DNA of 64,000 nt from Candidatus Babeliales bacterium (GTDB taxonomy: Bacteria > Babelota > Babeliae > Babelales > JANWKD01), in NCBI GenBank assembly GCA_963701665.1, contig OY969622.1:1088001-1152000 (forward strand). Reading direction: 5' to 3'. Both the position numbers and the translations under genes were made by a program. Below the pieces are notes generated by a model that was not told the DNA's origin, did not search any database, and saw only the letters and a program-made list of their open reading frames with translations. This document shows, in pieces, positions 34,600 to 58,380 of the stretch (within the stretch, counting starts at the first letter, position 1; the number at the start of each line of letters is the position of its first letter).

Positions 34600-35730
34600 T
34601 TATCTGGCTTTTAGAAGAGCACAATCATCATCAACCATTAGTTTTACTAATTTTTCAAACGTAACTTTTGGTTGCCATCCCAGTTTTGAAAAAGCTTTGC
34701 CAGCATCACCTAATAAATGATCCACTTCTGCCGGCCTAAAATAGCGAGGATCAATACGTACTAATACTTGATTCGTTACCGCATCAATACCTTGCTCATT
34801 AAGCCCACTACCTTGCCATTTTAAATCAATATCTACATGCGCAAATGCATGCTCGAGAAATTCTCTCACTGAATGAGACTCTCCTGTTGCAATAACATAA
34901 TCATCTGGTTGATCTTGTTGTAACATCAGCCACATTGCCTCTACATATTCTTTTGCATAGCCCCAATCACGTTTTGCATCTAAATTGCCTACATAAAGCG
35001 TATCTTGTAACCCACTCTTTATTCGTGCAACTGCGCGAGTTATTTTTCTAGTTATAAAAGTTTCACCACGTAAAGGAGACTCATGATTAAATAAAATCCC
35101 ATTGCAGGCAAAAATCCCATACGCTTCACGATAATTTACCGTAATCCAATACGCATAGAGTTTCGCTACTCCGTAGGGTGAACATGGATAAAAGGGCGTT
35201 AATTCGGTTTGCGGACAAGGTGCGTTACCAAAAAGCTCACTCGTTGATGCTTGATAAAACCGCGTTTTATCGGTTAAATTTAGAATTCTAATTGCTTCTA
35301 AGATTCGTAGTGTGCCTAAAGCATCAGCATTGGCCGTATATTCTGGTGTTTCAAATGAAACTTGCACATGACTTTGTGCAGCTAAGTTATAAATTTCGTC
35401 TGGTTGTACCTGTTGAATGATGCGAATAAGGTTCGTACTATCAGTAAGATCGCCATAATGCAAAATAAATTGAGGATATCCTTGATGTAAATCTTTATAC
35501 AAATGATCGATACGGGTAGTATTAATCGATGAAGATCGACGTTTTATACCGTGCACTTCGTAATCTTTTGATAGCAAAAATTCAGCTAAATAAGCGCCAT
35601 CTTGGCCCGTAATGCCGGTAATTAATGCTTTTTTTTGTTTATGTTTAGAGAATTCCTCACTTGACTCATACGCAGCTCCATACAACGAATAGATGCTGAG
35701 AAATGAGAGTGTTAATAACCTGAAATACAT
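34600..35730 (-). CDS. gmd: GDP-mannose 4,6-dehydratase with signal-like N-terminal extension
   Basis: [43 protein letters not shown]. Confidence 0.96.
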
Positions 35731-35734
35731 ACCC

Positions 35735-36823
35735 TTACCCCTTAATCATTGGCATTTTATACCCCAACATTTTTAAATCTTCAAGCCACGCTTTAAGAAG
35801 ATTCAATTCAGAAGGCTTAAAAAAATCTTGTTTAATCAATGTTGTCATGAAATCAAGTATACGAATCCCAAGATCAACTTCTGCGCAATCCCATCCGATT
35901 GCTGCTGTTATAAATTCTCCAGCTTTTAAATATAAATCAATTTCATCAGCAAAATCTTTAAGCAAATCATGTTCATTACGAAATTGAATGGCGGTTGCCG
36001 GTAAAAAACATAAGGAAGCATTAATATCCCATAATATTCTTTGCACCCAATAACTACGCCAAATATCACAAACCCTAAATTTCGGCGTAATAGGTAATAC
36101 TAAACCCCAAAAGGCATCGTAATGAAAAATGGTATTTTGAGAATTAAAAGGACACATTGTTTTTACAGGTAAACTGACCGGTTTTTGGGTTGATTCAAAC
36201 TCAATCTCTTGGCTATGCGTTAAACGAAAAATTGCATCAACATCAGGATCGCTATTAACAAGGCCTTGTTGAATTGGAATAAAAGATCGTTCTAACAAAA
36301 ATTGATGTGACCCGGCTTGATTAATTTCTTTTAACGGAAATCCACGTGGCCATACTCGTGGTTGACCAAAATCAGCATATACATTAACTGCACTCGCATC
36401 TGTTTGATACTGTAGCATTAAACTTTTTTCTGAAAAATACGTGATTGTATCTTCAATTGGAGTATTATCATCATCGGTGTCGTAAATTATTGAAGCACCA
36501 TGCTCTAATGCATATAAATACCCAATATTTTTTCTACTGTAATGATTCCAAGGTAATAATGGACAAATGTTATAGGGTAATTTTTGCTGATCAGCAACAC
36601 TCAAAAAATCACAATTATCCAAATGCCAATCGAGAGGTGTTTTCTTATCTGCAACCACAACCAAATGCCAACCATCAATATTGGCAAGTTTTTCTAATGC
36701 TGGAGTCGGATATTGAATGGTGGTTACTACAATCCATTTATCATGCTGCTGATTAAATAAGAACAAAGGACACAATAAAAGTACAACCGCAATGAAGCTT
36801 TTTATGAATCTGAAAACAAACAT
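35735..36823 (-). CDS. STELLO/DUF288-like glycosyltransferase, N-terminal domain
   Basis: [62 protein letters not shown]. Confidence 0.85.
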
Positions 36824-36845
36824 CCTCTCCCCCCAATTAAATATT

Positions 36846-37679
36846 TCACCTCTTCAACATTTTTTCAAAAAGATTTTTAATAAATATTTGATTTTCTTTA
36901 TATGAAAGCTTAATCGGATGATTAAAATGAGAATCGAATTTAAAAAGTTTATTTGAATCATAATAATGTAAATGAGTATGACTGCCCTTCAACCATAGCA
37001 ATTCTTCCTTTGAGCATAAGCAGGCTACTATTGTTGGTATCGCTAGCTCTAAAAAAGTATTATATTTACTAAAAATAGCAGCTAGCTCAATAAATTTTTC
37101 TTTATATACCGCAGGTATATACACAAAATCAGAAAATCCTGCTAACACTCGATGTTTTCCATAGTTTTTTGCTAATATTTTTTTATAAGATGCAGGCATG
37201 TCTTTATAGGCTTTCTCCACCGCTTTCCAACCCCATGGAGTGTGCCACCAACCCCACTTAGGAAAAGCGTTTGCTCCAAGTTTAAGATTGATGACATCGC
37301 CTCTCGTGCCAACAATATAAGTCATCTCACAAAGCCAGATTTTTAATTGATCCGCATTTTCCAATAACCATGGACCAAAAATGCAATCATCGTGCAAAAA
37401 AAAGTAACCATCAAAATTTGGGTAGCGCTGCATAGCATCGGAGATACACAAATAACTATAATACCCCTTATTATGTGCTAAAAAATGAACGTCAGGATGT
37501 TTTGTAGGACCATAAAAAACAATATTTGCAAAATAGGGTTCATATATCTCTTGCAATAATGGCATGGATTCGTAATGAGCATGATTATAATTTATGATTA
37601 ATAAAATATTATCAAGTGATTGAGAAAATAAATTATGTATAATTAATAAACTAATTATAAAAATTACTTTAACTTCCAT
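36846..37679 (-). CDS. STELLO C-terminal-domain-like protein
   Basis: LLIINYN, YEPYF, GYFFLHDD, SDFVYIP, FLELAIPT, HPIKLS; signal peptide. Confidence 0.7.
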   Translation of the reverse strand: MEVKVIFIISLLIIHNLFSQSLDNILLIINYNHAHYESMPLLQEIYEPYFANIVFYGPTKHPDVHFLAHNKGYYSYLCISDAMQRYPNFDGYFFLHDDCIFGPWLLENADQLKIWLCEMTYIVGTRGDVINLKLGANAFPKWGWWHTPWGWKAVEKAYKDMPASYKKILAKNYGKHRVLAGFSDFVYIPAVYKEKFIELAAIFSKYNTFLELAIPTIVACLCSKEELLWLKGSHTHLHYYDSNKLFKFDSHFNHPIKLSYKENQIFIKNLFEKMLKR

Positions 37680-37884
37680 TCTGCATTCCCCCCTACAATG
37701 AAAGTTATGGATAAAATCTTATGCTTCTCACAATATTTATCCAAAATAGTAGCAAGTTCTACAAAACCTTATCAAGGGTTAGATATAAAAAAGCAAAAAA
37801 GAGATGCCTACTTTGATATTACAACTTCCAACTTTGGATCAATTGTTTTTTAATTTTTTCTAAGATTTCTTGTTTGTAATCAAC

Positions 37885-38739
37885 CTATGAATTTAACATT
37901 TTAGCAAAAAGTTCTTTAATAAAAGTACGATTTGATTCGTATGAAAGCTTTATCGGATGATTCAAATGAAACTTTTGATTAAAGGCTTTATATTCTTCGT
38001 TATAAGGATAACCAGTACCGGTGCAATATAACCAATTCCATTCTTCTTTTAGGCACAAACATGACAAAATAGTTGGAAGAGCAGTTTCTAAAAAAGCTTC
38101 ATGTTTACCATAAATAACAGCAAGTTCTATAAATACTTCGCGATATTTAGCAGGTATATAAAAAAAATCAGAAAAGGATGCCACTACATGATTTTTACCC
38201 CAATTTTTTTCCAAAATTGCTTTACAATCTTTAGGAAGCTCTTTATATGCCTTTGTCATAGCTTCATAGCCAGATTTTCTAGACCACCAGACCCAGTCAA
38301 TCTTGGAAAAATCTTTAGTGCCCGGTTTTATACTGAAATCAATTGGATTTCCTCTGCTTTTACGCCAAAATAAAATATCAGGGGCCCAAATTGTTGTTGC
38401 GTCAAAATCTTTTAAAAGCCATGCATTAAAAATGCAATCATCCATTAGAAAGAAATACCCTTGAAAATTTGGATACTTTTTCATAGCGTCTGCAATACAC
38501 AAATAACTTAAATATCCTTGATTATGCTGTAATTCATGCACCCCCGAATGTTTAGAAGGCCCATAAAATACTATATTCTTAAAATAAGGCTTATAAATCT
38601 CTTCTAATAGTGGAATGGTATTATAATGAGCATGATTGTAATTAATAATTAATAAAACATCATCAAACAGCGAAGATGCGCAAAATACATTCTTAATGAT
38701 CAACAGTGATAGTGCTAGTATTGTTATTTTAGCCTTCAT
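37885..38739 (-). CDS. STELLO C-terminal-domain-like protein, paralog
   Basis: Same motifs (GYFFLMDD, SDFFYIP, FLETALPT, HPIKLS); GAGGAG RBS before ATG 38739. Confidence 0.7.
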   Translation of the reverse strand: MKAKITILALSLLIIKNVFCASSLFDDVLLIINYNHAHYNTIPLLEEIYKPYFKNIVFYGPSKHSGVHELQHNQGYLSYLCIADAMKKYPNFQGYFFLMDDCIFNAWLLKDFDATTIWAPDILFWRKSRGNPIDFSIKPGTKDFSKIDWVWWSRKSGYEAMTKAYKELPKDCKAILEKNWGKNHVVASFSDFFYIPAKYREVFIELAVIYGKHEAFLETALPTILSCLCLKEEWNWLYCTGTGYPYNEEYKAFNQKFHLNHPIKLSYESNRTFIKELFAKMLNS

Positions 38740-38888
38740 ACGTTCTCCTCTTTTAATACAACTCATATTTAAACACTATTTTTCATCGACTGACAATACA
38801 CAGATGTCATGCATTTCACCTTTTGTCAAATACATGCTATAAAGATTCAAACACCCTTTGCACTAACAAATAATAAAAAAGGTGATCT

Positions 38889-42108: not shown

Positions 42109-44628
42109 ATGCTCTTAAATTATGTGAAACGAGGGGCTTACAATAGTTTTATTTATGGATTAAGTTCAGCAATCATTAAAATTACTAATTTTATTTTTTT
42201 CCCCTATTTTCTTTCCGTTCTCACATTAGAAGATTTTGGTATTTGGGACTTCTATCAAATGTTTTTTTCATTAGGCATAACCTGTATAACTTCTTGCACT
42301 GCTACTTCTTTAATACGATTTTATTTCTTACACAGAGATAATATCTTAAAGCAAAAGCAAGTTATAGGGAATGCTTGTTTAATATGCCTAATTAGCATGG
42401 CAGTTTTTTTAATTACAATCCTAGGATTATATTATTATAATATTGTTCCAATTATGAGTAATTATTTAACTATAACAATAACTAATGTCTGTCTTTTCGG
42501 GTTATTTACCATTGTTATTTCATATTTACGAATTAACGAAAAATTGTTTTTATATTTGTTTTTTTTTACTGGACAAAGTACGTTAACTCTTGCATTAACA
42601 TTATTAGGCATACATTATCACTATGGCATCGATGCTTTTTTTTTGGCAAATATGATATCACTTTTATTGTTTGTTCCTTTTTTTTTATACCTTCTTTCCC
42701 GAAACTTTTATTTCTCTCTTAGCCTTCTCAAAGAGCAATTTATATTTGGCCTACCTTTACTCTCATATGCTATCATCTATATGGGATTTTTTTATGTTGA
42801 CCGTTTATTTATCACAAATATTCTTGGTTTAGAATCTCTTGGTATTTATGCTTTATTATGGCGATTCGGTATTCTATTTCAATTCTTCTCAATCGCTCTA
42901 ATAGATGCATGGCCAATCGTAGTATTTAATGCTGATAAAGAAAAAAACAGACAAATGCTTCTTACCAAGCTAAATACGTATTATATAGCAACTTTAATTA
43001 CATTAGGATTATCTACAACTATCGCTTCACAGTGCTTAATAAAAATAATGATTCCTATTAAATATCTCTTTTTAACAGAATATTTGCCTCTGTTTTTTCT
43101 ATCTTTGGTATTATTAGATATTGCCAGATTATTACAAACCAGCTTTAACTTAACAAACAAAACATTTTATATACCAATTTTAGCCATCGTTACTTTATGC
43201 ATTCAATATTGTACCTTTTTTATCTGCCAATTTTTTACAACTCTTAATCTTTCAATAGTGTTACTTATTAATATATTTACCTTTTCTTCTTACATAGTTT
43301 TAAGTTATATGCTGACAAAAAAATTATCCAATAAAACAATTGATGATAAACGTACCATAACCATGGCGTGCTTTCTCTTTGTGTATATAATCCTCTTTCA
43401 TATACTTTTTAAGTATCATGCATCTTTATCCTATTCTTTCCTCATGCTTTTTTCTTGGCCACTGCTATTGTGGTTTTCAAATATAATTTCAAGCGATGAA
43501 AAAACCTGGCTTTTAAAAATCATTTCAACAAAATTTCAATATTTATTTGTCGCCTACAATCAAAAAGAAAATCCTGTAACTGAGTATGAATTACATACTT
43601 ATTCTAATAATCTAATAAATAAAAAAATCGCTATATTTGGACCATATCCCCCACCATTTGGTGGCATTAGTGTTCACATCAAAAGAGTCACTCATAAATT
43701 ACTAAATCAGGGTAATGAGGTAAAAAATTTTGACACAACTATTAGACCACGATTTCGAGTTAGCTATATATTTCAGATTATTAGATTTTTAATCACATTT
43801 AAGCCGTCAATAATCTTTTACCACACACCCTATACAAAAAACGGGTTAGAAGAATTTGCAACTATAGTCTTTATAAAATTATTATTTGGCTCAAAATTAA
43901 TACTTATAGAACACGATTCCCGATATTTAGATAAACAATCTTTTTTATTTAAAATAATTTTCAACAAACTTATAAAAATGATTAACCAACAAATTTTCAT
44001 TGGGAAATCCCCCTTAGAAAGTTATTTTAATAACAAAATTTTTATACATTCACAATCTGTTATAGAACCAGCGTTCTTGCCGCCTGACTTATCTCAAGAA
44101 CAGAACATTTTAAAAAGCTATCCAAAAGAGTTATTTCATTTTTTAGAACACCGTAGTCCTATTCTAACAGCGAATGCATTTCAACTAATTTTCCTTGATG
44201 ATAAGGATCTTTATGGATTTGATTGGTGTATTGAACTTGTAAGTCAATTGAAACCAAAATTTCCAGACATCGGCTTTGTTTTTGCACTCGCTCAAATAGG
44301 CAACAAAACATACTATGATCAACTTGTAAAAAAGATAGAAAATTTAAATATAAAAAATAATTTTTATATCTTAACCAATCAAAAAGAATATTGGCCTTTA
44401 TTAAAAAAAGTTGACATATTTGTCAGGCCAACGCTTGCCGATAATTTTGGCATTAGTGTTGCAGAAGCTCTATATTTTGGAAAAATTTCTATCGCAAGTA
44501 ATGTTTGTACAAGACCAAAAAATACAGTTTTATTTAAATGGGGCAATAAAGAAGATTTTTTTGAAAAAGTGAATGCTTGTTTAAATAATCACATACATAC
44601 AAATATATCAGAGCAAATGCATTTATAA
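42109..44628 (+). CDS. Wzx-like flippase fused to a GT4 glycosyltransferase
   Basis: Polytopic N-terminus (LTLEDFG, DRLFI..LGIY); C-terminal PPPFGGISVH ... DNFGISVAEAL. Confidence 0.8.
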   Translation: MLLNYVKRGAYNSFIYGLSSAIIKITNFIFFPYFLSVLTLEDFGIWDFYQMFFSLGITCITSCTATSLIRFYFLHRDNILKQKQVIGNACLICLISMAVFLITILGLYYYNIVPIMSNYLTITITNVCLFGLFTIVISYLRINEKLFLYLFFFTGQSTLTLALTLLGIHYHYGIDAFFLANMISLLLFVPFFLYLLSRNFYFSLSLLKEQFIFGLPLLSYAIIYMGFFYVDRLFITNILGLESLGIYALLWRFGILFQFFSIALIDAWPIVVFNADKEKNRQMLLTKLNTYYIATLITLGLSTTIASQCLIKIMIPIKYLFLTEYLPLFFLSLVLLDIARLLQTSFNLTNKTFYIPILAIVTLCIQYCTFFICQFFTTLNLSIVLLINIFTFSSYIVLSYMLTKKLSNKTIDDKRTITMACFLFVYIILFHILFKYHASLSYSFLMLFSWPLLLWFSNIISSDEKTWLLKIISTKFQYLFVAYNQKENPVTEYELHTYSNNLINKKIAIFGPYPPPFGGISVHIKRVTHKLLNQGNEVKNFDTTIRPRFRVSYIFQIIRFLITFKPSIIFYHTPYTKNGLEEFATIVFIKLLFGSKLILIEHDSRYLDKQSFLFKIIFNKLIKMINQQIFIGKSPLESYFNNKIFIHSQSVIEPAFLPPDLSQEQNILKSYPKELFHFLEHRSPILTANAFQLIFLDDKDLYGFDWCIELVSQLKPKFPDIGFVFALAQIGNKTYYDQLVKKIENLNIKNNFYILTNQKEYWPLLKKVDIFVRPTLADNFGISVAEALYFGKISIASNVCTRPKNTVLFKWGNKEDFFEKVNACLNNHIHTNISEQMHL

Positions 44629-47053: not shown

Positions 47054-47758
47054 TTATATTTTTGATTTCTTTATAACAGCAACATATAAGCCATTCCACC
47101 AATTATCTTTATCGCAATTGTATCGCGCAGGAAGGGCCTCTTCAAAAAGAATGGCGTAACCCAATGCTTTAAATGCATCTTGCGTGCCATTTCTTACTTG
47201 ATCCCAATTCCAATCATCAACGATTGCAATAAAAATATCTGCAAATATCTCATCGTAGTGGGTAAATGCTTTGTATTGCGATTCATATGAATGATGCCCA
47301 TCGTAAAAATATATATTAACTGGTTGACTAAAAATAGCAGTTAAATTAACACTAAATGAATCTCCTTCATACAATCTAAAGGAATCCTTATCTAAATATT
47401 GAATACAATTATTAAAAAATATGTTTTTTTGAAAGCCGAATTCCGACCAATTATCTATAGCTATCGCATCGAGTAGATTATTTTTATAAAGAGCAGAAAT
47501 AAACGTTGATCCTTTGTATACACCAATCTCAAGATAGCGAGAGTTAGGCAAAGAACATATATTATTCAATAAATGCCTTACTTTTGAACTTGAGAATCCA
47601 TTCAATTGAAGAATCATAGTTGTTAAATTCGATTTGCCTGCCTTTGCTTTTTTTATACTTCGTTTAACGTGTTTAACAAGTAATTCAGCATCATCTGCCT
47701 GCATACAAAAAGACAAAATACTACATACAAAAAATAATTTTTTTAAAAATAACTTCAT
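47054..47758 (-). CDS. Methyltransf_24-like methyltransferase with signal peptide
   Basis: YLEIGVYKGST, YFYDGHH, IVDDWN; signal ending CMQA. Confidence 0.8.
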   Translation of the reverse strand: MKLFLKKLFFVCSILSFCMQADDAELLVKHVKRSIKKAKAGKSNLTTMILQLNGFSSSKVRHLLNNICSLPNSRYLEIGVYKGSTFISALYKNNLLDAIAIDNWSEFGFQKNIFFNNCIQYLDKDSFRLYEGDSFSVNLTAIFSQPVNIYFYDGHHSYESQYKAFTHYDEIFADIFIAIVDDWNWDQVRNGTQDAFKALGYAILFEEALPARYNCDKDNWWNGLYVAVIKKSKI

Positions 47759-47817
47759 TTTTCACCTTTTTTGTAGTTTATTTATCAAGAGTATGTTAAT
47801 ACAAAGCATACATTTTA

Positions 47818-49386
47818 TTAATGATGGGATTTTTGAATAACGGCAACGTATAATCCATCCCACCATTTTTCTAAATCGACATCATAATAAGCCGGCAAAC
47901 TCTTTTCATAAAGAATTTTATAGTTTAACTCACGCAATGCTTCTTTTGTCCCTTTCTGGACATCTATCAAATTCCAAGCATCAACAATAGCAATAAAGGT
48001 ATCTGCAAAAACCTTATCATAGTACACAAAAGCTTTTTTATGATCTTCTTTGGAATGATATCCATTATAAAAAAATATATTAATTGGGCGATTAAAATGT
48101 TCTTCTAAATGTAGGTTAAAAGCATCACAATAAATAACTCTATATTTATTGTGCGATAGAAATATATTAGCGTTTTCACCGAATTCATTTTTTCTATATT
48201 CAGACCAATTACCTATTGCAATTGCATCAGCTACATAATCATGGTTGCCATGTAAAGCAGAAATAAATGTTGATACTCTCAATACACCTGTTTCCAGATA
48301 TCGCACACCTACGATTTTACATAAATTATTCAAAAGACATCTTATTTCTGGGCTGGACATTCCGGGAAGAGCAAATATTTTTTTTGTTAGTCTTGATTTT
48401 TTTTTCTCAGCTTTATCAATACAATCCTGAACATGACATATCAAAAACTGCGGGTTTGTTAAAAATTCATTCTCAGGGCCTGTAACAAAAAATGGCAGTG
48501 ACATTTTATAATCTTTTATGAGATTAAGCCAATAAGGTAAAAATAATTTATCTTTATTATAGTGTTTATCTTGTATTTCTTGATATTTTTTTTCTAAAAA
48601 TTCTTCAGTAACTTCTTCCCAATTTTCGACAATAATAACTGGTAATCCTTCATATAAAGGATTCAATGTTGAAGAATGCACAACAGGAATTGACCCTACT
48701 AATAATGCTTCCCAAGTCCTGAAACAATCAAGCCCATAGCCAAATGGACTTAAAACAAACAAATATTCTGACATCTCCAAAAGATATTCTTTAAAAGGTT
48801 TTTGCGATGCAAGAAAAATAAATGGTTTATCTTTAAAGTGATTAAATACTTTTAAACGTTCTGGTATAACATCATGAACGGTAAAATTAATATACAATTT
48901 ATGATTTTTTTTATTGTGCGTAGGTTCACCAATAGAATCCAAAACAATATCCATCGTCCGTGTATCACCAAATGGAACATGAGGATTTGACATTCCAATC
49001 GGGAGTGGAAAAAATTTAGGGTGATAATTGATATCACAATTCTCACCGTACCATCTTAAAATTCTTGGATCATCAAGATATGAAAAAAACTCTCCGGGCG
49101 ATGGCCAATCGGCATTATGAGTAATTAAAATAAATGGTTCTATAATTTGAGGAAAAAGCTCATTGAAAAAAAAATTGGCTGAGACTCTATCAACAAATAT
49201 AACGCTCTTTGGCCAAAGACCTTTGGGATCAAAATTATATTGAAGATTCTCAACATAATAATAGGCAAAATTTTTAAATCCATTACCAGTTATATACTCT
49301 CTTGTACTATTAAATGCTTGTAAACAATAACAAAAAAATAAAAATAAACAAAATAAAGCTTTATGCAATTTCATAATTTTCATCAA
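47818..49386 (-). CDS. Exostosin/GT47-like plus Methyltransf_24-like fusion with signal peptide
   Basis: FVLSPFGYGLDCFRTWEALLVGSIPVV; degenerate MTase C-domain. Confidence 0.72.
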   Translation of the reverse strand: MMKIMKLHKALFCLFLFFCYCLQAFNSTREYITGNGFKNFAYYYVENLQYNFDPKGLWPKSVIFVDRVSANFFFNELFPQIIEPFILITHNADWPSPGEFFSYLDDPRILRWYGENCDINYHPKFFPLPIGMSNPHVPFGDTRTMDIVLDSIGEPTHNKKNHKLYINFTVHDVIPERLKVFNHFKDKPFIFLASQKPFKEYLLEMSEYLFVLSPFGYGLDCFRTWEALLVGSIPVVHSSTLNPLYEGLPVIIVENWEEVTEEFLEKKYQEIQDKHYNKDKLFLPYWLNLIKDYKMSLPFFVTGPENEFLTNPQFLICHVQDCIDKAEKKKSRLTKKIFALPGMSSPEIRCLLNNLCKIVGVRYLETGVLRVSTFISALHGNHDYVADAIAIGNWSEYRKNEFGENANIFLSHNKYRVIYCDAFNLHLEEHFNRPINIFFYNGYHSKEDHKKAFVYYDKVFADTFIAIVDAWNLIDVQKGTKEALRELNYKILYEKSLPAYYDVDLEKWWDGLYVAVIQKSHH

Positions 49387-49399
49387 TCTTTAAAAAAAG

Positions 49400-51034
49400 T
49401 TAATTATTATTTCTTGCCGGTTTCTTTATAACGGCAACATATAAACCATTCCACCAATTATCTTTATCGCCATTATACGGCGCAGGCAGTACTTCCTCAA
49501 AAAGAATAGTATAACCCAATTCTTTAAACGCATCTCGAGTGCCATTTCTTACTTGATCCCAATTCCAATCATCAACAATCGCGATAAAAGTATCTGCAAA
49601 GACCTTATCGTAATGAGTAAATGCTTTGTATTGCGCTTCATATGAATGGTTACCATCGTAAAAGTATATATTAACTGGTCTATAAAAAAGTTGATGCACA
49701 TTTATGGAAAATGCATTCTGATCTATGACTCTAAAAGCATTTCCCGATAAAAATTTATTCGTATATTGCTTAAAAACATCTTTTCCACCAAATTCAGACC
49801 AATTATCAATTGCAATTGGATCAATCAAATTGTTATTTTTATAAAGCCCAGCGATAAATGTAGAACCTTTATAAACGCCTATTTCAAGATATTGCGCACC
49901 TTCCAAAGAACACACGTTATTCAAAAAATGTCTCACTTTGGAACTAGACATACCATTTATAGATAAAACCTCTTTGGTTAGTTTTGATGTGTGTTCATTT
50001 GTTTTTGTAATACAATTTTTCACATGATATAGTAGGAATTGATCGTTAGTTAAAAAATCATAGTTAGTTTTTTCTAAAAATAACGGTAGAGAATCGTGAT
50101 ACAGATTTATATGTTCAATCCAATACTGCAAAAACAATTTTTCTCTGTTATATGGCAATCCCTTTATTTCTAAATATTTTTTTTCTAAAAAATCTTCCGT
50201 AACTTCACGCCAATCTTCAACTATAATTACTGGCAAATCTTTATAGAGATCATTTACTGTAGAGGAATGAACAACAGGAATTGACCCTACCAATAACGCT
50301 TCCCACGTTCTATAACAATCAAGCCCGCCACCAAAAGGGCTCAAAACAAACAAATATTGCGACATTTCCAACAAATATTTCTCAAATTGCTTGCGCTCAG
50401 CATTAAAAACGAAAGGCTTATTTATAAAGTGATTATATACTTGCGTTCGAGAAGGCACTGATTGACGTTTAGCGCGTATATCACTACTAAGCGAAAAATT
50501 CATGTATAATTTGTGTACCTTTTCTGTCCGGTCGAGTATATTCACACGTGCCAAAACAGCATCTAAGGTTTTAACATCATCAAAAACTGCACGCTTCAAA
50601 ATATCCATAGGGATATGAGAAAATTTAGGGTGCGTTATATCAAAATTCTGTTCATAACGATTTGGAATACCAATAGGAAGAGGAAAAAATTTAGGATGCC
50701 CTGTTATATCGGGATTTGCTCCGTACCATCTTAAAATACGCTTATCATCAAGATACTCAAAGAATTCGCCAGGAGAAGCTTGATCAGCATTGTGCGTCAC
50801 TAAGACGAAAGGCACCGTAATTTGAGGGAATATTATGTCGAAAAAGAATCGCAGAAATTTTCCATCAACATAAATAATACTTTTAGGTTCAATATTCTTT
50901 GGATCGAAGTTAATCCCGGATCTCAAAACTTGATATTTGGCATTTTTCTTAAAGCCATTACTTGTGATATATTCTCTTGAATCACCAAATAAATTTATAG
51001 ACCACAAGAGTAATAATAAATACTTCAATTTCAT
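49400..51034 (-). CDS. Exostosin/GT47-like plus Methyltransf_24-like fusion, paralog 2
   Basis: Same motifs; intact EIGVYKGS, YDGNH, VDDWN. Confidence 0.75.
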   Translation of the reverse strand: MKLKYLLLLLWSINLFGDSREYITSNGFKKNAKYQVLRSGINFDPKNIEPKSIIYVDGKFLRFFFDIIFPQITVPFVLVTHNADQASPGEFFEYLDDKRILRWYGANPDITGHPKFFPLPIGIPNRYEQNFDITHPKFSHIPMDILKRAVFDDVKTLDAVLARVNILDRTEKVHKLYMNFSLSSDIRAKRQSVPSRTQVYNHFINKPFVFNAERKQFEKYLLEMSQYLFVLSPFGGGLDCYRTWEALLVGSIPVVHSSTVNDLYKDLPVIIVEDWREVTEDFLEKKYLEIKGLPYNREKLFLQYWIEHINLYHDSLPLFLEKTNYDFLTNDQFLLYHVKNCITKTNEHTSKLTKEVLSINGMSSSKVRHFLNNVCSLEGAQYLEIGVYKGSTFIAGLYKNNNLIDPIAIDNWSEFGGKDVFKQYTNKFLSGNAFRVIDQNAFSINVHQLFYRPVNIYFYDGNHSYEAQYKAFTHYDKVFADTFIAIVDDWNWDQVRNGTRDAFKELGYTILFEEVLPAPYNGDKDNWWNGLYVAVIKKPARNNN

Positions 51035-51115
51035 AAGGCTCCTGTACTATTTTTACATTTTACTGTTATTTATTAAAAATATATCTTCCCCGAATAAGAT
51101 AGCTCATACAATGAT

Positions 51116-52693
51116 TCATTTTGAACCTATCCTAGTTGGTTTTTTTATAACAGCAACATATAAACCATTCCACCAATTATCCCTATCACCATTGTATTGC
51201 GCTGGAAGAATCTCTTCAAAAAGAATAGTATAACCCAATGCTTTAAATACATCTTGAGTGCCATTTCTTACTTGATCCGAATTCCAATCACCAACAATCG
51301 CAATAAAAGTATCTGCAAAGACCTTATCGTAATGAGTAAATGCTTTGTAGTGCGCTTCATATGAATGATAACCATCGTAAAAGTATATATTAACTGGCCT
51401 ATAAAAAAGTTGATGCACATTTATAGAAAATGCATCCTGGTCTATAACTCTAAAAACATTTTCCAATAAAAATTCATTTGTATACAGCTCAAAGGCGTAT
51501 CTTCCACCAAATTCAGACCAATTATCAATTGCAATTGGATCGATCAAATTGTTATTTTTATAAAGCCCAGCGATAAATGTAGAACCTTTATAAACACCTA
51601 TTTCAAGATATTGCGCGCCTTCCAAAGAACACACATTATTCAAAAAATGTCTCACTTTGCAACTAGACATACCATCTATTGATAAAACCTCTTTGGTTAG
51701 TTTTGATTTCTGTTCATTTGCTTTTTTAATACAATTTTTCATATGATGTATTAGGAATTGATCTCTAGTTAAAAAATCATAGTTAGGTTTTTCTAAAAAT
51801 AAAGGTAGAGAATCGCGATACAGATTTATAGGTTCAATCCAATACTGCAAAAACAACTTTTCTCCGTTATATGGCAATTCCTTTATTTCTAAATATTTTT
51901 TTTCTAAAAAATCTTCCGTAACTTCACTCCAATCTTCAACTATAATCACTGGCAAATCTTTATAGAGCTCATTTAATGTAGAAGAATGCACAACAGGAAT
52001 TGACCCTACCAATAATGCTTCCCACGTTCTAAAACAATCAAGCCCTTTCCCAAAAGGGCTCAAAACAAATAAATATTGTGACATTTCCAATATATATTCC
52101 TTAAGTGGCTTGCGCACAGCATTAAATACGAAGGGCTTATTTATAAAGTGATTATATACTTGCGTTCGAGCAGATATTGATTGACGTTCAGCGCATACGT
52201 CAGTATTAAGCGAAAAATTCATGTATAATTTGTGTATTTTTTCTGTTCGATCGGGTATATCCACATTTGCCAAAACAGCATCTAAGATTTTAGTATCGGC
52301 ATACAAAACTACGCGCTTAGGAATACCGATAGGAAGAGGAAAAAATTTGGGGTGCCCTGTTATATCAGCATTCTCGCCGTACCATCTTAAAATACGCTTA
52401 TCATCAAGATATTTAAAGAATTTACCTGGAGAAGGAAAATCAGCATGATGCGTCACTAAGATGAAAGGCACTGTAATTTGAGGGAATATTGTATCGAAAA
52501 ATAATCGCAAAAAATTTCTATCAACATAAATAATACTTTTAGGTTCAATATTCTTTGGATCAAAGTCAATCCTAGATTTCACAACTTGATATTTGGCAAT
52601 GTTTTTAAAGCCTCTGCTTGTGATATATTCTCTTGAATCATCACCAAATAAATTTATAGACCACATGAGTAATAATAAGTACTTCAATTTCAT
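51116..52693 (-). CDS. Exostosin/GT47-like plus Methyltransf_24-like fusion, paralog 3
   Basis: Long near-identical DNA stretches shared with paralog 2. Confidence 0.75.
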   Translation of the reverse strand: MKLKYLLLLMWSINLFGDDSREYITSRGFKNIAKYQVVKSRIDFDPKNIEPKSIIYVDRNFLRLFFDTIFPQITVPFILVTHHADFPSPGKFFKYLDDKRILRWYGENADITGHPKFFPLPIGIPKRVVLYADTKILDAVLANVDIPDRTEKIHKLYMNFSLNTDVCAERQSISARTQVYNHFINKPFVFNAVRKPLKEYILEMSQYLFVLSPFGKGLDCFRTWEALLVGSIPVVHSSTLNELYKDLPVIIVEDWSEVTEDFLEKKYLEIKELPYNGEKLFLQYWIEPINLYRDSLPLFLEKPNYDFLTRDQFLIHHMKNCIKKANEQKSKLTKEVLSIDGMSSCKVRHFLNNVCSLEGAQYLEIGVYKGSTFIAGLYKNNNLIDPIAIDNWSEFGGRYAFELYTNEFLLENVFRVIDQDAFSINVHQLFYRPVNIYFYDGYHSYEAHYKAFTHYDKVFADTFIAIVGDWNSDQVRNGTQDVFKALGYTILFEEILPAQYNGDRDNWWNGLYVAVIKKPTRIGSK

Positions 52694-52726
52694 AATGCCC
52701 AACTACTCTTATATCTCGTACATTTA

Positions 52727-53944
52727 TTATTTGTTAAAAATGTATCGTACTCGAATAAAATAATGCATATAATAATTCATTTTAAATATCTTATTCAGAT
52801 ACATCCCTTCTAAAAATTGCAGAGTATAAAAAAGACCAAAGACAAAAGCACAACAAATGAAACTAAGCGCATATTGTGGTGTTGGTAAGGTTAAAATAGG
52901 TGTAATGCTACTTAAGCCAAAGGTGCACAAAAATGCAATAATAAGATCATAGCGGCGCACTGAATAATAAAATGCAAACAATCCAAAATTTGCAAAAAAC
53001 AGAAGATAAAAAAGTAAAATCCCTAATTTTGAAAAAATAGTCCAAATTACGAAATACAATTGGGTTTTAATGAGCTTGATTACTTCATTTTTTAAGATTC
53101 TTTCATAATCGCTCGTTTGCGAAATCGACACGTCTGGATTAATTTGACGTACTTTATAATCCCCAAATGCGTCGTCCCATCTAATATCGTCTTTATTATT
53201 AAATTTTAAAAAACCGAATCCAATATATACTTGGTGCCAAAAAACATGTTTCGTTTGTAAAGAATCGAACTCTTTGAAATGAGTCTGAGCAAAGTTTCTA
53301 TATAATTTAATTGCATGTTCAAAGTAACAACTTGAAATGAAGATCCCTAAAAAAAGGCATGCTAACAATATGATTTTTTTTATAAATTCCAAATTTGCAT
53401 GCAACACTACCATGCACATAATAAACCCTAGTACGGGCAATGAAGAATATGTTCTCACATAATGAGAAAAGCCAATGATAATTCCTGCGAAAACCAAAAA
53501 ATAATTGAAAAATTTGGAATCGTTATTTCTTAAGGCAAAGTATAAAAATAAAGGGATAATTGATAAAAATGATACCAAGTATTCGTTATACACGTCATAT
53601 AATTGATAAAAAATAAGCCTTAAAAACAAACAAAATGATAGACACGAGACAATTTGTGTTGAGATTTTTGCTTTAAATAGCAATAAAAAACCGATTAAAC
53701 CAAGCACAAAAGCAACACCAATTTGGGAATAAAAAAATATATCGATTGCTTGCTGCAAAGAAACATTAAAAAATTGTACAATTTTAGGCACAAATAAATA
53801 TAAGCCAACATCATCAAACGTTAAAAAAGGTACAAATTTTGACCCATCAAATCCTACAAATGGGATTTGAATTTTTTCCATCGCTGCTACTATCTTTTGT
53901 AAGGTAACAAATCTGCATTCCATTATTAACATACTGCTTCCCAA
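52727..53944 (-). CDS. Polytopic membrane protein, putative GT-C glycosyltransferase
   Basis: DDVG in the first loop, HYVRTYS, HVFWH, WDD; multiple TM helices. Confidence 0.55.
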   Translation of the reverse strand: MGSSMLIMECRFVTLQKIVAAMEKIQIPFVGFDGSKFVPFLTFDDVGLYLFVPKIVQFFNVSLQQAIDIFFYSQIGVAFVLGLIGFLLLFKAKISTQIVSCLSFCLFLRLIFYQLYDVYNEYLVSFLSIIPLFLYFALRNNDSKFFNYFLVFAGIIIGFSHYVRTYSSLPVLGFIMCMVVLHANLEFIKKIILLACLFLGIFISSCYFEHAIKLYRNFAQTHFKEFDSLQTKHVFWHQVYIGFGFLKFNNKDDIRWDDAFGDYKVRQINPDVSISQTSDYERILKNEVIKLIKTQLYFVIWTIFSKLGILLFYLLFFANFGLFAFYYSVRRYDLIIAFLCTFGLSSITPILTLPTPQYALSFICCAFVFGLFYTLQFLEGMYLNKIFKMNYYMHYFIRVRYIFNK

Positions 53945-53969
53945 AATTCTTAAAAAATCTTAAATAATA

Positions 53970-55181
53970 TTATTTGAGAGTAATACCACATCTATATCTA
54001 TACGCCAATTTTTTTAACATAGCGCTTATTGGATATAACTCAATTAGCTTTGCTATGTTAATTATGCCAAAAAGAGTACTTGTCACAATAAATGATAAAG
54101 AATAATTGCCTTGAGGTAATGCCATGATAGGAAAAAGAGCGCTAATGGCAAAACAGAATAGCCAAGCTAACTGTTGCCTCCAATATGTTCGGGTAAAAAT
54201 TAAAGCCAAGAATCCTATATTCGCGTATTTGAGAAAATAAAAAAATAAAACGCCTAGTTTAGCAAAAATAGTTGCTATCACAAAAAAACGTTGCGTTTGC
54301 CACATATCAATCACTTCTTGTCTTACTGCTTTTTCAAATTCGGTCATAGTTAGAAATGAAAGTTGTGAATCACGCTTATTCACTTTTTTTTCAACACAAC
54401 TATCTTCAAACGATATATTATCAACGTTAAGATATTTCAAAAAACCAAACCCAGCATATACCGTCGTCCAAAAAGCATGCTTACTCGTAACATCACAATC
54501 CTTAAAATGTTCAGCTGCATATGTTTTGTACCGATAAACCTGATACGAAAAATAGCCGTAAGGCATACTTAAACCCAAGCATAACAAAAGAGCCAATGCA
54601 ACTTTTTGCTTAACAGTACTATGTACGCTAGTCAAAAAGGCAATAAGCATAAAAATTATAACTGATAGTCCTGAATAAGAACGTATATAATGTAAGGAAC
54701 CAAGCACTATACCACTTAGAACCACAAAGTATGGAAAAAGCCGATGAGATTTTTCCTGTAAAAAATAAAGATACAATGGCATGATACTTAATGGCGCTGC
54801 ACTATACGCTAAATAAACGTCTGTTATTGGAATATTGGTTATCGAATATAATAAAAATGCAAGTGATCCAAAACTGATAATACGTATTTTCCAAGAATTA
54901 TAGAGCAAAAAAAAGGCATATGAGGCAATTAAAAAAGGAATATACAATAACCCATAAAAAAATATATCGATTCCTTGTTGCAACGAAATGTTCAGCAATT
55001 TTACAATTTTTGGAATAAAAATATAAATTCCTATATCGTCAAAACAGCCTGTCCATGATCCTGCTGTTCCGGACATGGGTAAAAATGAGGCACCATCAAA
55101 ACCGATGAATGGTACATTAATTTTGTCACATGCGTTAAGTAAATATTCAAGAACCAAATAACGAGAATCTAATATCTTCAT
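53970..55181 (-). CDS. Polytopic membrane protein, putative GT-C, paralog
   Basis: FDDIGIY, HYIRSYS, HAFWT, FED. Confidence 0.55.
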   Translation of the reverse strand: MKILDSRYLVLEYLLNACDKINVPFIGFDGASFLPMSGTAGSWTGCFDDIGIYIFIPKIVKLLNISLQQGIDIFFYGLLYIPFLIASYAFFLLYNSWKIRIISFGSLAFLLYSITNIPITDVYLAYSAAPLSIMPLYLYFLQEKSHRLFPYFVVLSGIVLGSLHYIRSYSGLSVIIFMLIAFLTSVHSTVKQKVALALLLCLGLSMPYGYFSYQVYRYKTYAAEHFKDCDVTSKHAFWTTVYAGFGFLKYLNVDNISFEDSCVEKKVNKRDSQLSFLTMTEFEKAVRQEVIDMWQTQRFFVIATIFAKLGVLFFYFLKYANIGFLALIFTRTYWRQQLAWLFCFAISALFPIMALPQGNYSLSFIVTSTLFGIINIAKLIELYPISAMLKKLAYRYRCGITLK

Positions 55182-55334
55182 ATCAATCTTTATTAACCAA
55201 TTTTAATTTTGCGATTACTCTAACATAATTAGCTTTCATGTCTAGGTTAAGATCTTTCAAAATTTTGCTATCATAGATCCTACGAACCGTATTTTGTAGT
55301 AAAGAGGGTTGATAGTTTTCTTAAAAAAGAAAAC

Positions 55335-56294
55335 TTGAAGAAGCAGATGCAAAAAAAATTAGCCATCCAAAAAAAGATTTCAGTTATTTTGCCGGTATAC
55401 AACGAGAGTAAAAACCTGCCAACGGTTTACCACGCGTTAGAGGAATCTATGCACTCGTTGCTCGGTGCCTATGATTATGAAATTATATTTGTTAATGATG
55501 GCAGCCTTGATGAATCATGGTCGATCATCACATTGTTATCAGCGCAAAACTCAAAAATTAAAGGTATCAATTTCAGTCGCAATTTTGGCTATCAAAGGGC
55601 ATTAACAGCAGGCTATGATGCAGCAGTTGGCGATGCAATTATCACCATGGATTCTGATATGCAGCATCCGCCGCATTTATTACCGATGTTAATAGCAAAA
55701 TGGGAATCGGGTGCTAATATTGTATATGCAAAAAGAACCAATCGAGAAGATACCTTCTTAAAGAAAATGACTGCTCATTTTTACTACCAAATATTAGAAG
55801 CAATCTCTGATATTCATATTCCTCAAAATGTTAATGATTTTCGGCTCATAGATCGACGCGTATTAGTTTATATTAAATCAATGACAGAACACTCGCGTTA
55901 TTTACGTGGCATGATAGCATGGGCAGGCTTTGATTATGCGATAGTCGATTTTAATCAGCCCACTCGATTATCAGGAACAACAAAATATACCTGGAAAAAA
56001 TTATTTAAAATTGCTTTTGATGGTATTGCTAATTTTTCACTTTTCCCTTTAAAGCTTGCATGCTTCTTTTTCATACTTGTAGTCATATCAGGATTTAGTA
56101 TAGCAATGGGTATCGCTGTTCACTATGTATCGCATACTCATCGGTTTCAAATCATTGATTTGATGTATTTTTTGCTATATCTCACCTTCGGTTTACAATT
56201 TTTACTGTTATGGCTTTTGGGAAGAAATATTGGCATAATTTACGATCAACTCAAAGAGCGTCCCTTGTACATCATTAGAAAAAAAATCAACTGA
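55335..56294 (+). CDS. GtrB/ArnC-like polyprenol-phosphate glycosyltransferase (GT2)
   Basis: SVILPVYNE, NDGS, FSRNFG, MDSDMQHPP, two C-terminal TMs, RPLYII. Confidence 0.9.
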   Translation: MKKQMQKKLAIQKKISVILPVYNESKNLPTVYHALEESMHSLLGAYDYEIIFVNDGSLDESWSIITLLSAQNSKIKGINFSRNFGYQRALTAGYDAAVGDAIITMDSDMQHPPHLLPMLIAKWESGANIVYAKRTNREDTFLKKMTAHFYYQILEAISDIHIPQNVNDFRLIDRRVLVYIKSMTEHSRYLRGMIAWAGFDYAIVDFNQPTRLSGTTKYTWKKLFKIAFDGIANFSLFPLKLACFFFILVVISGFSIAMGIAVHYVSHTHRFQIIDLMYFLLYLTFGLQFLLLWLLGRNIGIIYDQLKERPLYIIRKKIN

Positions 56295-56316
56295 TTCCTT
56301 CTATTCAAACAATTGT

Positions 56317-57543
56317 TCAAATTCTTAATAATTTAAAATTAGCGATAGTATTAATACAATTTCTCATGGTATAAGCTATATTTTTTTCATACCTAGATAA
56401 GAAATGATTAATACTTATAATACAATAAAGAGTACTAAAACTAATAAATGAAAATGAGAAAAGGCGAATAGGTAATGCAATCAATGGAAAAAGTGTACTT
56501 AATGCAAAACCTATGAAAAATGATAGTTCAACTCGCCAAGGCTTTGGGTAAAAAAACGCAATTAGTAAGCCAAAATTCGCCGTAATTAATAAATAAAACA
56601 ATAAAACACCTAATTTGGCAAATAACGTCATTAAAACAAACGTCTTTTGATGCCTGCACAAATCTATAACTTTCTTTTTGACGATTTTTTCATATTCATT
56701 TATTTGAAAATAAGGTATAGACGGAAAATCTTTGTTAACAGCCCTTTCAACACAGCCATCATCATATTCAATATTATCCTTATTTAACCACTTAATAAAA
56801 CCAAAACCTGCATATATAGTATGCCAAAATGGATGTTGGGTTGGTAAACCATTAGAAGTATCAAAATGAACTACTGCATAGCTTCTATATTCTTTGATTA
56901 CGGTATCAAAATACATCTTTGAAACCATAAGCCCACTGACGAGTAATACTATAAGATATAGTTTTCTTTTATAATCAAAATCAGCATGCACCAAAAGATA
57001 GCACATTATAAAACCAAGAACAGGCAAACTAGAATATGAGCGGACGTAATGTAACATTCCAAGAAATACCCCTGAAAGAAAAAGAAAAGACATTAAAATT
57101 CTAAGGTTTTTTTTCTCTTGGCTGAAATATAAAAAAAGAGGAATAACCGCAAGGATTGCTGCACAATACGCTATATAAACATCCGATGCATAAACACAAA
57201 TTTTTAAAAATAAAATTAATGCCAAAATTGTTACACATCTTTGAAGCATAGTTTTATAGAGTAAAAATAATCCCCCAGCACCTAATGCTAGTGAACCATA
57301 AAAAAGTCCGTTAAAAAAAATATTAATGCCAAGATCAACCGATATGCCAAAAAATTTAATCAATTTGGGTATCAATACAAATATGCCAATATCATCAAAG
57401 CTCCCTGTCCATGATGCTAGAGTTCCTGTAAAAGGGATAATGTTAGTGCCATCATAACAAACCAATGGAACATCTATCTTAAATGTATTATAGGCATTCA
57501 TTATATAGTTAAGGGCTAAATATCGAGAAGGAAGAATGTTCAT
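56317..57543 (-). CDS. Polytopic membrane protein, putative GT-C, paralog
   Basis: FDDIGIF, HYVRSYS, HPFWH, YDD; start chosen to match the paralog's MKILDSRYL. Confidence 0.55.
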   Translation of the reverse strand: MNILPSRYLALNYIMNAYNTFKIDVPLVCYDGTNIIPFTGTLASWTGSFDDIGIFVLIPKLIKFFGISVDLGINIFFNGLFYGSLALGAGGLFLLYKTMLQRCVTILALILFLKICVYASDVYIAYCAAILAVIPLFLYFSQEKKNLRILMSFLFLSGVFLGMLHYVRSYSSLPVLGFIMCYLLVHADFDYKRKLYLIVLLVSGLMVSKMYFDTVIKEYRSYAVVHFDTSNGLPTQHPFWHTIYAGFGFIKWLNKDNIEYDDGCVERAVNKDFPSIPYFQINEYEKIVKKKVIDLCRHQKTFVLMTLFAKLGVLLFYLLITANFGLLIAFFYPKPWRVELSFFIGFALSTLFPLIALPIRLFSFSFISFSTLYCIISINHFLSRYEKNIAYTMRNCINTIANFKLLRI

Positions 57544-57574
57544 TAATCTAACCTTATTGTCAAAAAAGAGTGTC

Positions 57575-58282
57575 TTATTTGTTACCATTTAATTGTGCTA
57601 TGACAGCATACAGAGCTCCCACAGGAATTTTTGTCATGAAACGCTCAGTCCATCTTAGGTATTTGAATACGCGTGGATAAAAACAATAATATTTTGTAGT
57701 TAATGTCGCGTGCGGTAAAAACTCACCCATGATTGCGCGTGCATAGCTTGGATATAACATTGTTGCATGTTTATCAATTGGGTTATTTTTAAATGTTCGT
57801 ACCGTTAACGGATTAAAAGGATTCAATTCAAATAAAACGAAACACCCTTGAGGTTTTAAAACACGAAAAATTTCTTGCAGATATCCTTGATGACGATCGA
57901 AAGGAATATGATGAAAAGTTCCTGCTGAAAAAATAATATCAAAAGTATTATCTTCGAAGTCTAAATCAGACGTTTCATCGTAATTAACGGAAAATTTAAT
58001 CGAAGTAAAATGTTCTTGCGCAACCTTCACACTTTCGGCAGATGGATCGATACCATATAAAACCGATAATGGAAAATATTGTGAAACTAGATAGGTCATG
58101 AGACCATCGCCACAACCAAAATCTAAAATTTTTTGATTTTGTAGGCTTCTTGCCGGCATCCATTCTTTTAACTTTAATGCTTTATATTCTGCGAAGTATT
58201 CACTTGATTCCCCGGACAATGATAATGATTGATCAAGATTTTTACGATAATTTTTAATATAAGCATCGAATTCAGAATTCAT
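57575..58282 (-). CDS. Class I SAM-dependent methyltransferase
   Basis: ILDFGCGDG, GTFHHIP, FELNPFNP. Confidence 0.88.
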   Translation of the reverse strand: MNSEFDAYIKNYRKNLDQSLSLSGESSEYFAEYKALKLKEWMPARSLQNQKILDFGCGDGLMTYLVSQYFPLSVLYGIDPSAESVKVAQEHFTSIKFSVNYDETSDLDFEDNTFDIIFSAGTFHHIPFDRHQGYLQEIFRVLKPQGCFVLFELNPFNPLTVRTFKNNPIDKHATMLYPSYARAIMGEFLPHATLTTKYYCFYPRVFKYLRWTERFMTKIPVGALYAVIAQLNGNK

Positions 58283-58380
58283 AGGCACCTTTTTCAATTT
58301 CTTATAAGTCACTTAAAGTCTTTGTAATTTTTGCTATCATTAATGTCATTAACCCTACATTTTGTAAAGGTGCCAGAGTA

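Follow-up and report, generated by a model that had tools for sequence, protein, structure and literature searches.

Within the 64,000-nucleotide stretch of DNA that was analysed (the window), we identified a gene for GDP-mannose 4,6-dehydratase (Gmd) whose product consists of a 32-residue leader followed by a complete enzyme. Predicted leaders of this kind are a recurrent pattern of Gmd proteins in the phylum, well beyond the level seen in controls, and the window protein is probably exported. Given that this leader-bearing protein is a second Gmd in its genome and that about half of the copies in the phylum are leader-bearing as well, activated sugars are likely to be made outside the bacterium's own cytoplasm from host supplies. 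The genome concerned (1.34 Mb, 37% GC, 93.6% complete) belongs to a Babeliales-type member of Dependentiae and is labelled G000; G003, G004, G039 and similar labels denote other genomes of the phylum. Among the 120 EF-P homologs listed for it, just two bear a taxon name, these being Candidatus Babeliaceae and Dependentiae.

The window gene and its translation start

The window gmd (34600..35730, minus strand) encodes a paralog of 376 aa (P0001) that matches the Pfam profile PF16363 over its full length (profile positions 1-332) with a score of 516.5 bits against a cut-off of 27, and its best matches in the PDB are Gmd proteins (E values of 2e-158 and 5e-151; we take PDB entry 1db3 to be the E. 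coli enzyme). The ATG is located 4 nt past the stop codon of an upstream gene for a STELLO-like protein and is preceded, at a distance of 7 nt, by a Shine-Dalgarno-like AAGGGG (35738..35743, minus strand) that lies within the 3' end of that gene. The original prediction of a 32-residue leader ahead of the canonical Rossmann motif, with no internal ATG before the motif, was borne out: there is no second in-frame ATG ahead of the motif, and the frame offers no further start codon except for a TTG at position 16, which is not preceded by a purine-rich box. An internal start near the Rossmann motif was rejected, this TTG being the only candidate.

A run of eight A residues (A8) lies just before the Rossmann motif (35629..35636, minus strand). 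A short contig from run X3 (151 nt, depth 2, possibly from the source sample) reads through it with no indel and matches 35580-35730 with neither a difference nor a gap, and a homopolymer slip in the run as the source of the leader was rejected on this ground. Two out-of-frame ATGs inside the leader (window 35629-35695) run into the A AAA AAG stretch, at which a one-base slip could in principle yield a leaderless Gmd.

Features of the leader

The 32 codons of the leader (35635..35730, minus strand) encode a predicted Sec signal peptide of approximately residues 1-18/20 (35671-35730), followed by a polar linker. By our own rule, the leader has the features of a substrate of Sec and signal peptidase I (SPase I), namely an n-region with Arg4, a hydrophobic stretch and the small residues G18-A19-A20; cleavage near residue 18-20 was inferred by eye. 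The leader is on the weak side, with one positive charge, a best 9-residue hydropathy of 2.24 and a 19-residue hydropathy of 1.1, the latter being below the level of a membrane helix. No lipoprotein or Tat features were detected in it (no Cys, no twin Arg), and in an AlphaFold model it forms a low-confidence helix (pLDDT 45-58, residues 1-30) on a well-predicted fold. A search for a donor gene within G000 using blastn-short returned only chance matches of 13-21 nt, so that copying of the leader from another G000 gene was rejected.

Catalytic core

On every check except Arg183 the window protein is a Gmd, and its activity is predicted. It retains 180 of the 188 positions conserved among control Gmds, together with all of the GxxGxxG, KRR, T-S-E, YxxxK, NHES, GETF, RDWG and RPxEV motifs. 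These include the NADP-binding motif GITGQDG (residues 39-45, 35596..35616) and two catalytic motifs, T163-S164-E165 (35236..35244) and Y186-xxx-K190 (35161..35175), that were located by PDB match and control alignment. The exception is the conserved Arg of P-R-S-P-Y, which is kept by at least 90% of the control Gmds and is replaced here by Cys183 (35182..35184; all four on the minus strand), a residue shared with three other leader-bearing and three leaderless copies from the phylum or metagenomes. Gmds with a leader contain on average 2.4 cysteines, those without one 2.75 and control Gmds 2.0, so that no enrichment pointing to an oxidising compartment was seen.

Distribution of Gmd leaders across the phylum

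Gmd matches at E<=1e-90 were obtained in 128 of 230 genomes of the phylum. From the matches listed, 147 distinct copies in 124 genomes were scored by a rule that calls a leader when the start lies 17-70 codons upstream, the n-region is basic and the 9-residue hydropathy is at least 1.9; the set leaves out three fragments, one match at a contig end, six matches outside those listed and three full-length copies with variant motifs, all three of which are leader-bearing by eye. Leaders were found on 75 of the 147 copies, in 69 of the 124 genomes and in 7 of the 16 families. Among the 69 genomes, 52 possess only leader-bearing Gmd and 17 possess both kinds, and some genomes encode sister paralogs, one with and one without a leader. 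Ten metagenomic Gmd homologs are leader-bearing as well. When applied to 80 Gmd ORFs (79 loci) from outside the phylum, the same rule yielded two borderline cases; among in-phylum controls it picked out 0 of 28 phosphomutases, 1 of 22 WecB and 2 of 24 GalE proteins (30 loci each, the remainder being fused or without the anchor motif).

The 75 leaders have a median length of 32 residues and a median uncharged run of 13 residues, share no common sequence and contain no lipobox (0/75). In 56 of these Gmds, including the window copy, there is no ATG or GTG within 9 codons of the fold; the other 19 retain such a codon near it. On a 186-row Gmd tree the leader trait undergoes at least 13 state changes, which, as the root was not inferred, are not told apart into gains and losses, and a single leader-bearing clade was rejected (p-AU 1.65e-7, 41-row subset). 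The window Gmd belongs to a 12-row clade composed entirely of leader-bearing copies, next to which leaderless members of the window copy's family are placed (FastTree support 0.89). A leader on its own is common in this lineage, as 505-567 of the 1154 G000 ORFs (about 44%) pass a signal rule, SecA and EF-Ts being among the evident false positives; since nearly half of the lineage's proteins are thus leader-bearing, the lone window gene is less surprising than the phylum pattern.

Genomic neighbourhood and the leaderless paralog

In the window, gmd occupies the fourth place in a run of five co-oriented leader-bearing genes (all on the minus strand, assigned by Pfam scan and N-terminus), which encode three STELLO-like proteins, Gmd and a sulfotransferase. 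The STELLO-like protein directly upstream of gmd corresponds to an N-terminal half (35735..36823); the two before it correspond to C-terminal halves (36846..37679, and 37885..38766 with a likely start at 38739). The gene directly downstream of gmd encodes the sulfotransferase (PF00685, 33776..34597). In this part of the window (35735-38766) a plant STELLO-like protein is split over three genes, one for the N-half and two for the C-half, and a similar split pair lies close to the leader-bearing gmd of G003. The island in which the five-gene run is located also contains envelope genes of the cytoplasmic type that have no leader.

Elsewhere in the window, three tandem genes for RXYLT1-like glycosyltransferases (47054-52702) all have leaders; two of them carry a Pfam-matched class-24 methyltransferase domain, and a stand-alone leader-bearing methyltransferase of the same family is encoded in this region. 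Three ORFs of membrane type, related to one another, about 400 aa long and lacking a Pfam match (52727-53944, 53970-55181 and 56317-57588) are found beside GT2 genes at 51116-58312, and a polysaccharide flippase-like domain is fused to a GT4 glycosyltransferase domain in a protein without a leader (42109-44628).

In agreement with the original prediction, a Pfam scan covering 41 ORFs of the window and a PF16363 search of G000 turned up neither fcl nor rmd within the window. A leaderless gmd, with 74.7% identity to the window gene, and an fcl were both located elsewhere in the genome, in a manC-gmd-fcl operon (G000:C1:122358-125496). This fcl is the only copy in G000 and is leaderless, as are the remaining PF16363 matches of the genome, galE and one epimerase.

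Partner enzymes and transferases

Leaders were also found on other enzymes encoded at Gmd loci, namely on 35 of 85 Fcl and 18 of 49 ManC proteins. An adjacent fcl is leader-bearing in 30 of 41 cases beside a leader-bearing gmd, as opposed to 4 of 38 beside a leaderless one, a difference that comprises only two independent pairs, is not significant and is therefore no test of correlated evolution. ManC shows the opposite distribution, being leader-bearing in 1 of 5 cases beside a leader-bearing gmd and in 9 of 33 beside a leaderless one. In 25 genomes, 19 of which belong to the same family, leaders are present on all Gmd copies and on the sole Fcl detected; six genomes, including G000, possess both kinds of Gmd and a leaderless Fcl, and no Fcl was detected in nine genomes with a leader-bearing Gmd. 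Most leader-bearing Fcls retain the old Met, at which a ribosome-binding box is present in 3 of 34 leader-bearing and 16 of 47 leaderless proteins.

Full-length PAPS synthases of about 570 residues number five among 121 genomes (G119, G186, G127, G046 and G176; L263-L267). All five are leader-bearing, at least two of them adjoin leader-bearing sulfotransferases, and the one whose architecture was checked combines ATP sulfurylase with APS kinase. Other genes near the gmds of the phylum, encoding GT2, GT4, GT6, GT10, GT32-like, sulfotransferase and FkbM proteins, are mostly leader-bearing. G000 itself encodes a GT10 fucosyltransferase with a leader (C1:381611-382690) and leader-bearing sulfotransferases. 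Neither APS kinase nor MetK was found in this genome at its 93.6% completeness, so PAPS and SAM would be host-derived. A search with PF01531 (GT11) gave no match in G000 or anywhere else, and its result thus carries no weight for G000. Two neighbour proteins in relatives, which we presume to be GT11-like, had no Pfam match, and a tblastn search of G000 with the GT11-like neighbours of relatives matched only a methyltransferase.

Several nucleotide-sugar enzymes are leader-bearing in single genomes: a PF02719 dehydratase, a divergent Gmd-like enzyme, a UDP-glucose dehydrogenase and two GalE proteins (L100:4468-5601, L102:307-1422, L094:9672-11096, L348 and L351). In several genomes, most of them from family f19, WecB is encoded in open frames of 836-960 codons, suggesting fusion with another enzyme (L375, L376, L378, L383, L384, L392, L393, L395, L399 and L401).

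Secretion machinery and leader-bearing proteome

Among the type II secretion genes of G000 are those for GspC, two secretins, GspG, a PilM-like protein and GspE-type ATPases; SecA, two SPase I genes and Omp85 genes are also present. TatC and DsbB were not found in any of the five genomes searched, nor was LpxC in G000. The two secretins and the failure to find LpxC fit the description of Babeliales (PMC4776705), and Sec, type II secretion with two gspD genes and little LPS synthesis have been described for Dependentiae (PMC6561590, PMC4776705), in one relative of which 44% of proteins have signal peptides (PMC6561590). Chromulinavorax, another member of Dependentiae, is described as replicating in the host cytoplasm with vesicle budding (PMC6561590), and type II substrates of Legionella can reach the host cytosol (PMC5478897). 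The SPase I genes of G000 form a tandem pair (G000:C1:911724-913352); G003 and G004 likewise have two copies and G039 has one, and one of the two enzymes might handle a special leader class. G000 encodes four TLC-family nucleotide transporters, which implies that host nucleotides must reach the inner membrane and keeps the periplasm as a possible workplace.

A Pfam scan covered 316 representatives of the leader-type ORFs of G000 outside the window, 105 further clusters having been dropped by a stricter filter. The leader-bearing set includes a ubiquitin hydrolase and DOT1-like methyltransferase, MavL-like, macro-domain, WD40 and ankyrin proteins. The ubiquitin C-terminal hydrolase, the DOT1-like methyltransferase, the MavL-like ADP-ribosylhydrolase and the macro-domain protein are candidate host-acting effectors (L338:1277-2473, L313:13844-14500, L293:14101-15594 and L332:1-762). 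Glutamine synthetase, a thioredoxin reductase-thioredoxin fusion, an NADPH-dependent flavodoxin-fold protein and a radical SAM enzyme are leader-bearing despite needing cytosol-type cofactors (L278:5679-7064, L311:10896-12329, L306:6085-6750 and L309:13291-14316). A small residue followed by Met and then Glu, Asp, Gln or Asn occurs at positions 14-33 in 152 of 567 leader-type ORFs of G000, as opposed to 9 of 453 others, so that many mature G000 proteins would begin with Met; the window Gmd leader does not have this pattern.

A putative route from export to glycan

The following chain of steps is, in our estimate, somewhat short of an even chance as a whole. The window Gmd would be exported by Sec, its leader being cut near residue 18-20, and would be released to the host-cytosol side, likely by the type II secretion system or by vesicles. 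Sec translocates unfolded chains, so Gmd would have to meet NADP+ and GDP-mannose where it lands, and NADP+ would be bound at that destination. The exported enzyme would then convert host GDP-mannose to the precursor of GDP-fucose. Since G000 has no leader-bearing Fcl, reduction of the keto-sugar would be left to the host GDP-fucose synthase in this organism and would be carried out by exported Fcl in relatives. The product would serve the parasite's own leader-bearing glycosyltransferases and end up in a parasite glycan coat, comparable to that which chloroviruses make with host GDP-mannose.

The phylum-wide Gmd leaders, the leaders of partner enzymes, the secretion genes, the leader-bearing GT10 enzyme and the leader-bearing proteins that fit a eukaryotic setting all suggest this chain. 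The weakness of the window leader, the high base rate of leaders, Cys183 and the lack of a leader-bearing Fcl in G000 may count against it, as may the ManC leaders, which favour leaderless gmd neighbours, the leaderless envelope genes of the island and the nine genomes in which no Fcl was found. The original prediction that Gmd could act on a host GDP-mannose pool holds in part: export and reliance on host GDP-mannose have good, though indirect, support from the Gmd leaders of the phylum, the cytosolic paralog, the failure to find TatC and the leader-bearing partners that need host metabolites, whereas the picture of a lone enzyme was too narrow in view of the leader-tagged glycan kit and the leaderless fcl in the genome. 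More tentatively still, Babeliales may export an entire donor-making kit (ManC, Gmd, Fcl and PAPS synthase) along with transferases into the host cytosol and, in the manner of giant viruses, draw on host GTP, mannose phosphate, NADPH and ATP to build a coat or to alter host molecules, the signal peptides having been added many times.

Alternative explanations

An exported Gmd might also stay in the periplasm, the default end point of Sec substrates. There it would tailor the envelope glycan with host GDP-mannose, NADP(H), ATP and PAPS that seep in across an outer membrane devoid of classical LPS, an arrangement that we consider rather unlikely but deserving of serious weight. It would accord with the four TLC transporters, with the failure to find LpxC and DsbB and with the position of gmd amid envelope-glycan genes in G000, G003 and G004. 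Dark-staining periplasmic material, as described for Chromulinavorax (PMC6561590), is in line with it as well. However, among the genomes with a leader-bearing Gmd, G000 and five others have leaderless Fcl only and nine have no detected Fcl; the keto-sugar would then have to recross a membrane to be reduced. In addition, the ubiquitin- and chromatin-type enzymes with similar leaders point past the periplasm.

It is improbable that Gmd is an effector which, in the host cytosol, drains GDP-mannose or raises GDP-fucose, altering host glycosylation and feeding no parasite glycan (the original idea in its narrow form). Such a role would suit a leader-bearing Gmd that has no leader-bearing Fcl partner in G000, an f1-family copy that arose by duplication beside a retained cytosolic one and a leader type common to many host-type effectors. 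The occurrence of leaders on ManC, Fcl, PAPS synthase and many transferases (GT2, GT4, GT6, GT10, GT32-like, sulfo- and methyltransferases) argues instead for a building kit rather than a sink.

Equally doubtful, if not slightly more so, is a leader that does not export at all, being a neutral addition in a signal-peptide-rich lineage or a membrane tether, with Gmd acting in the cytoplasm, for example by way of an internal start. Leaders are frequent both in G000 and in the relative with 44% of signal-peptide-bearing proteins (PMC6561590), that of the window Gmd is weak, and a start codon persists near the fold in 19 of 75 Gmds and as the old Met in most leader-bearing Fcls. On the other hand, the 56 Gmds without a near start include the window copy, the ribosome-binding box at the old Met of Fcl is scarce among leader-bearing proteins (3/34, as opposed to 16/47), housekeeping sugar enzymes of the phylum seldom bear leaders, and the trait switched repeatedly on the tree. 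An assembly or annotation artefact, in which an indel in A8 just before the Rossmann motif joined an unrelated upstream frame to gmd, would fit the out-of-frame ATGs upstream and a related long contig that holds frameshifted copies of the window genes, but is largely refuted by the error-free 151-nt contig across the run and by the leaders on 74 other Gmd copies and 10 metagenomic homologs, and its probability is minimal.

Implications and comparison with known systems

The synthesis of nucleotide sugars and PAPS is a textbook cytoplasmic process in bacteria because the substrates and cofactors are absent outside. If the leaders work, a phylum of protist parasites has moved steps of both outside the cell more than once, which would change the reading of 'missing pathways' and of envelope synthesis in Babeliales-type genomes and would provide a counterpart, among bacteria, of the glycosylation carried out by giant viruses. 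The literature covered, which consisted of main texts, including those of the Dependentiae papers and a Midichloria preprint, most subscription papers being beyond its scope, contained no account of nucleotide-sugar enzymes with leaders. The term 'glycosyl' is absent from the main texts of PMC6561590 and PMC4776705, and 'fucose' from the main text of the latter.

The window Gmd shares its family and motifs with the enzyme of the bacterial ManC-Gmd-Fcl pathway (PDB 1db3 and 7kf3; E values of 5e-151 to 2e-158), and G000 also possesses an ordinary leaderless operon for that pathway. In contrast to bacterial Gmds, which are cytosolic and have only a few residues ahead of the fold, the window protein has a 32-residue leader and is encoded among leader-bearing transferases rather than beside fcl. 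In its richness in signal peptides, G000 resembles the secretomes described for Dependentiae (PMC6561590, PMC4776705). Normally cytosolic glycogen enzymes of Chlamydia trachomatis are secreted into the inclusion, where they use a host nucleotide sugar; however, they carry type III signals and act in the lumen of a vacuole, and the donor-making GlgC is not secreted, whereas in the present phylum the donor-making enzymes themselves have Sec-type leaders (PMC4829429). The secreted hexokinases of microsporidia likewise represent a cytosolic enzyme that gained a signal peptide in an intracellular parasite, but they follow a eukaryotic secretory route, involve a single enzyme and serve glycolysis rather than the supply of glycan donors (PMC6460350, PMC3976299). 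The chlorovirus PBCV-1 encodes a GMD (A118R) and a GMER (A295L), parasite-encoded enzymes that turn host GDP-mannose into donors for its own glycans (PMC9614988). These viral proteins are synthesised in the cytosol of the host and do not require a signal, and A118R in addition carries out a reduction to GDP-D-rhamnose; if the export route proposed above is correct, it is nevertheless A118R that the window Gmd would most resemble in its mode of action (PMC9614988).
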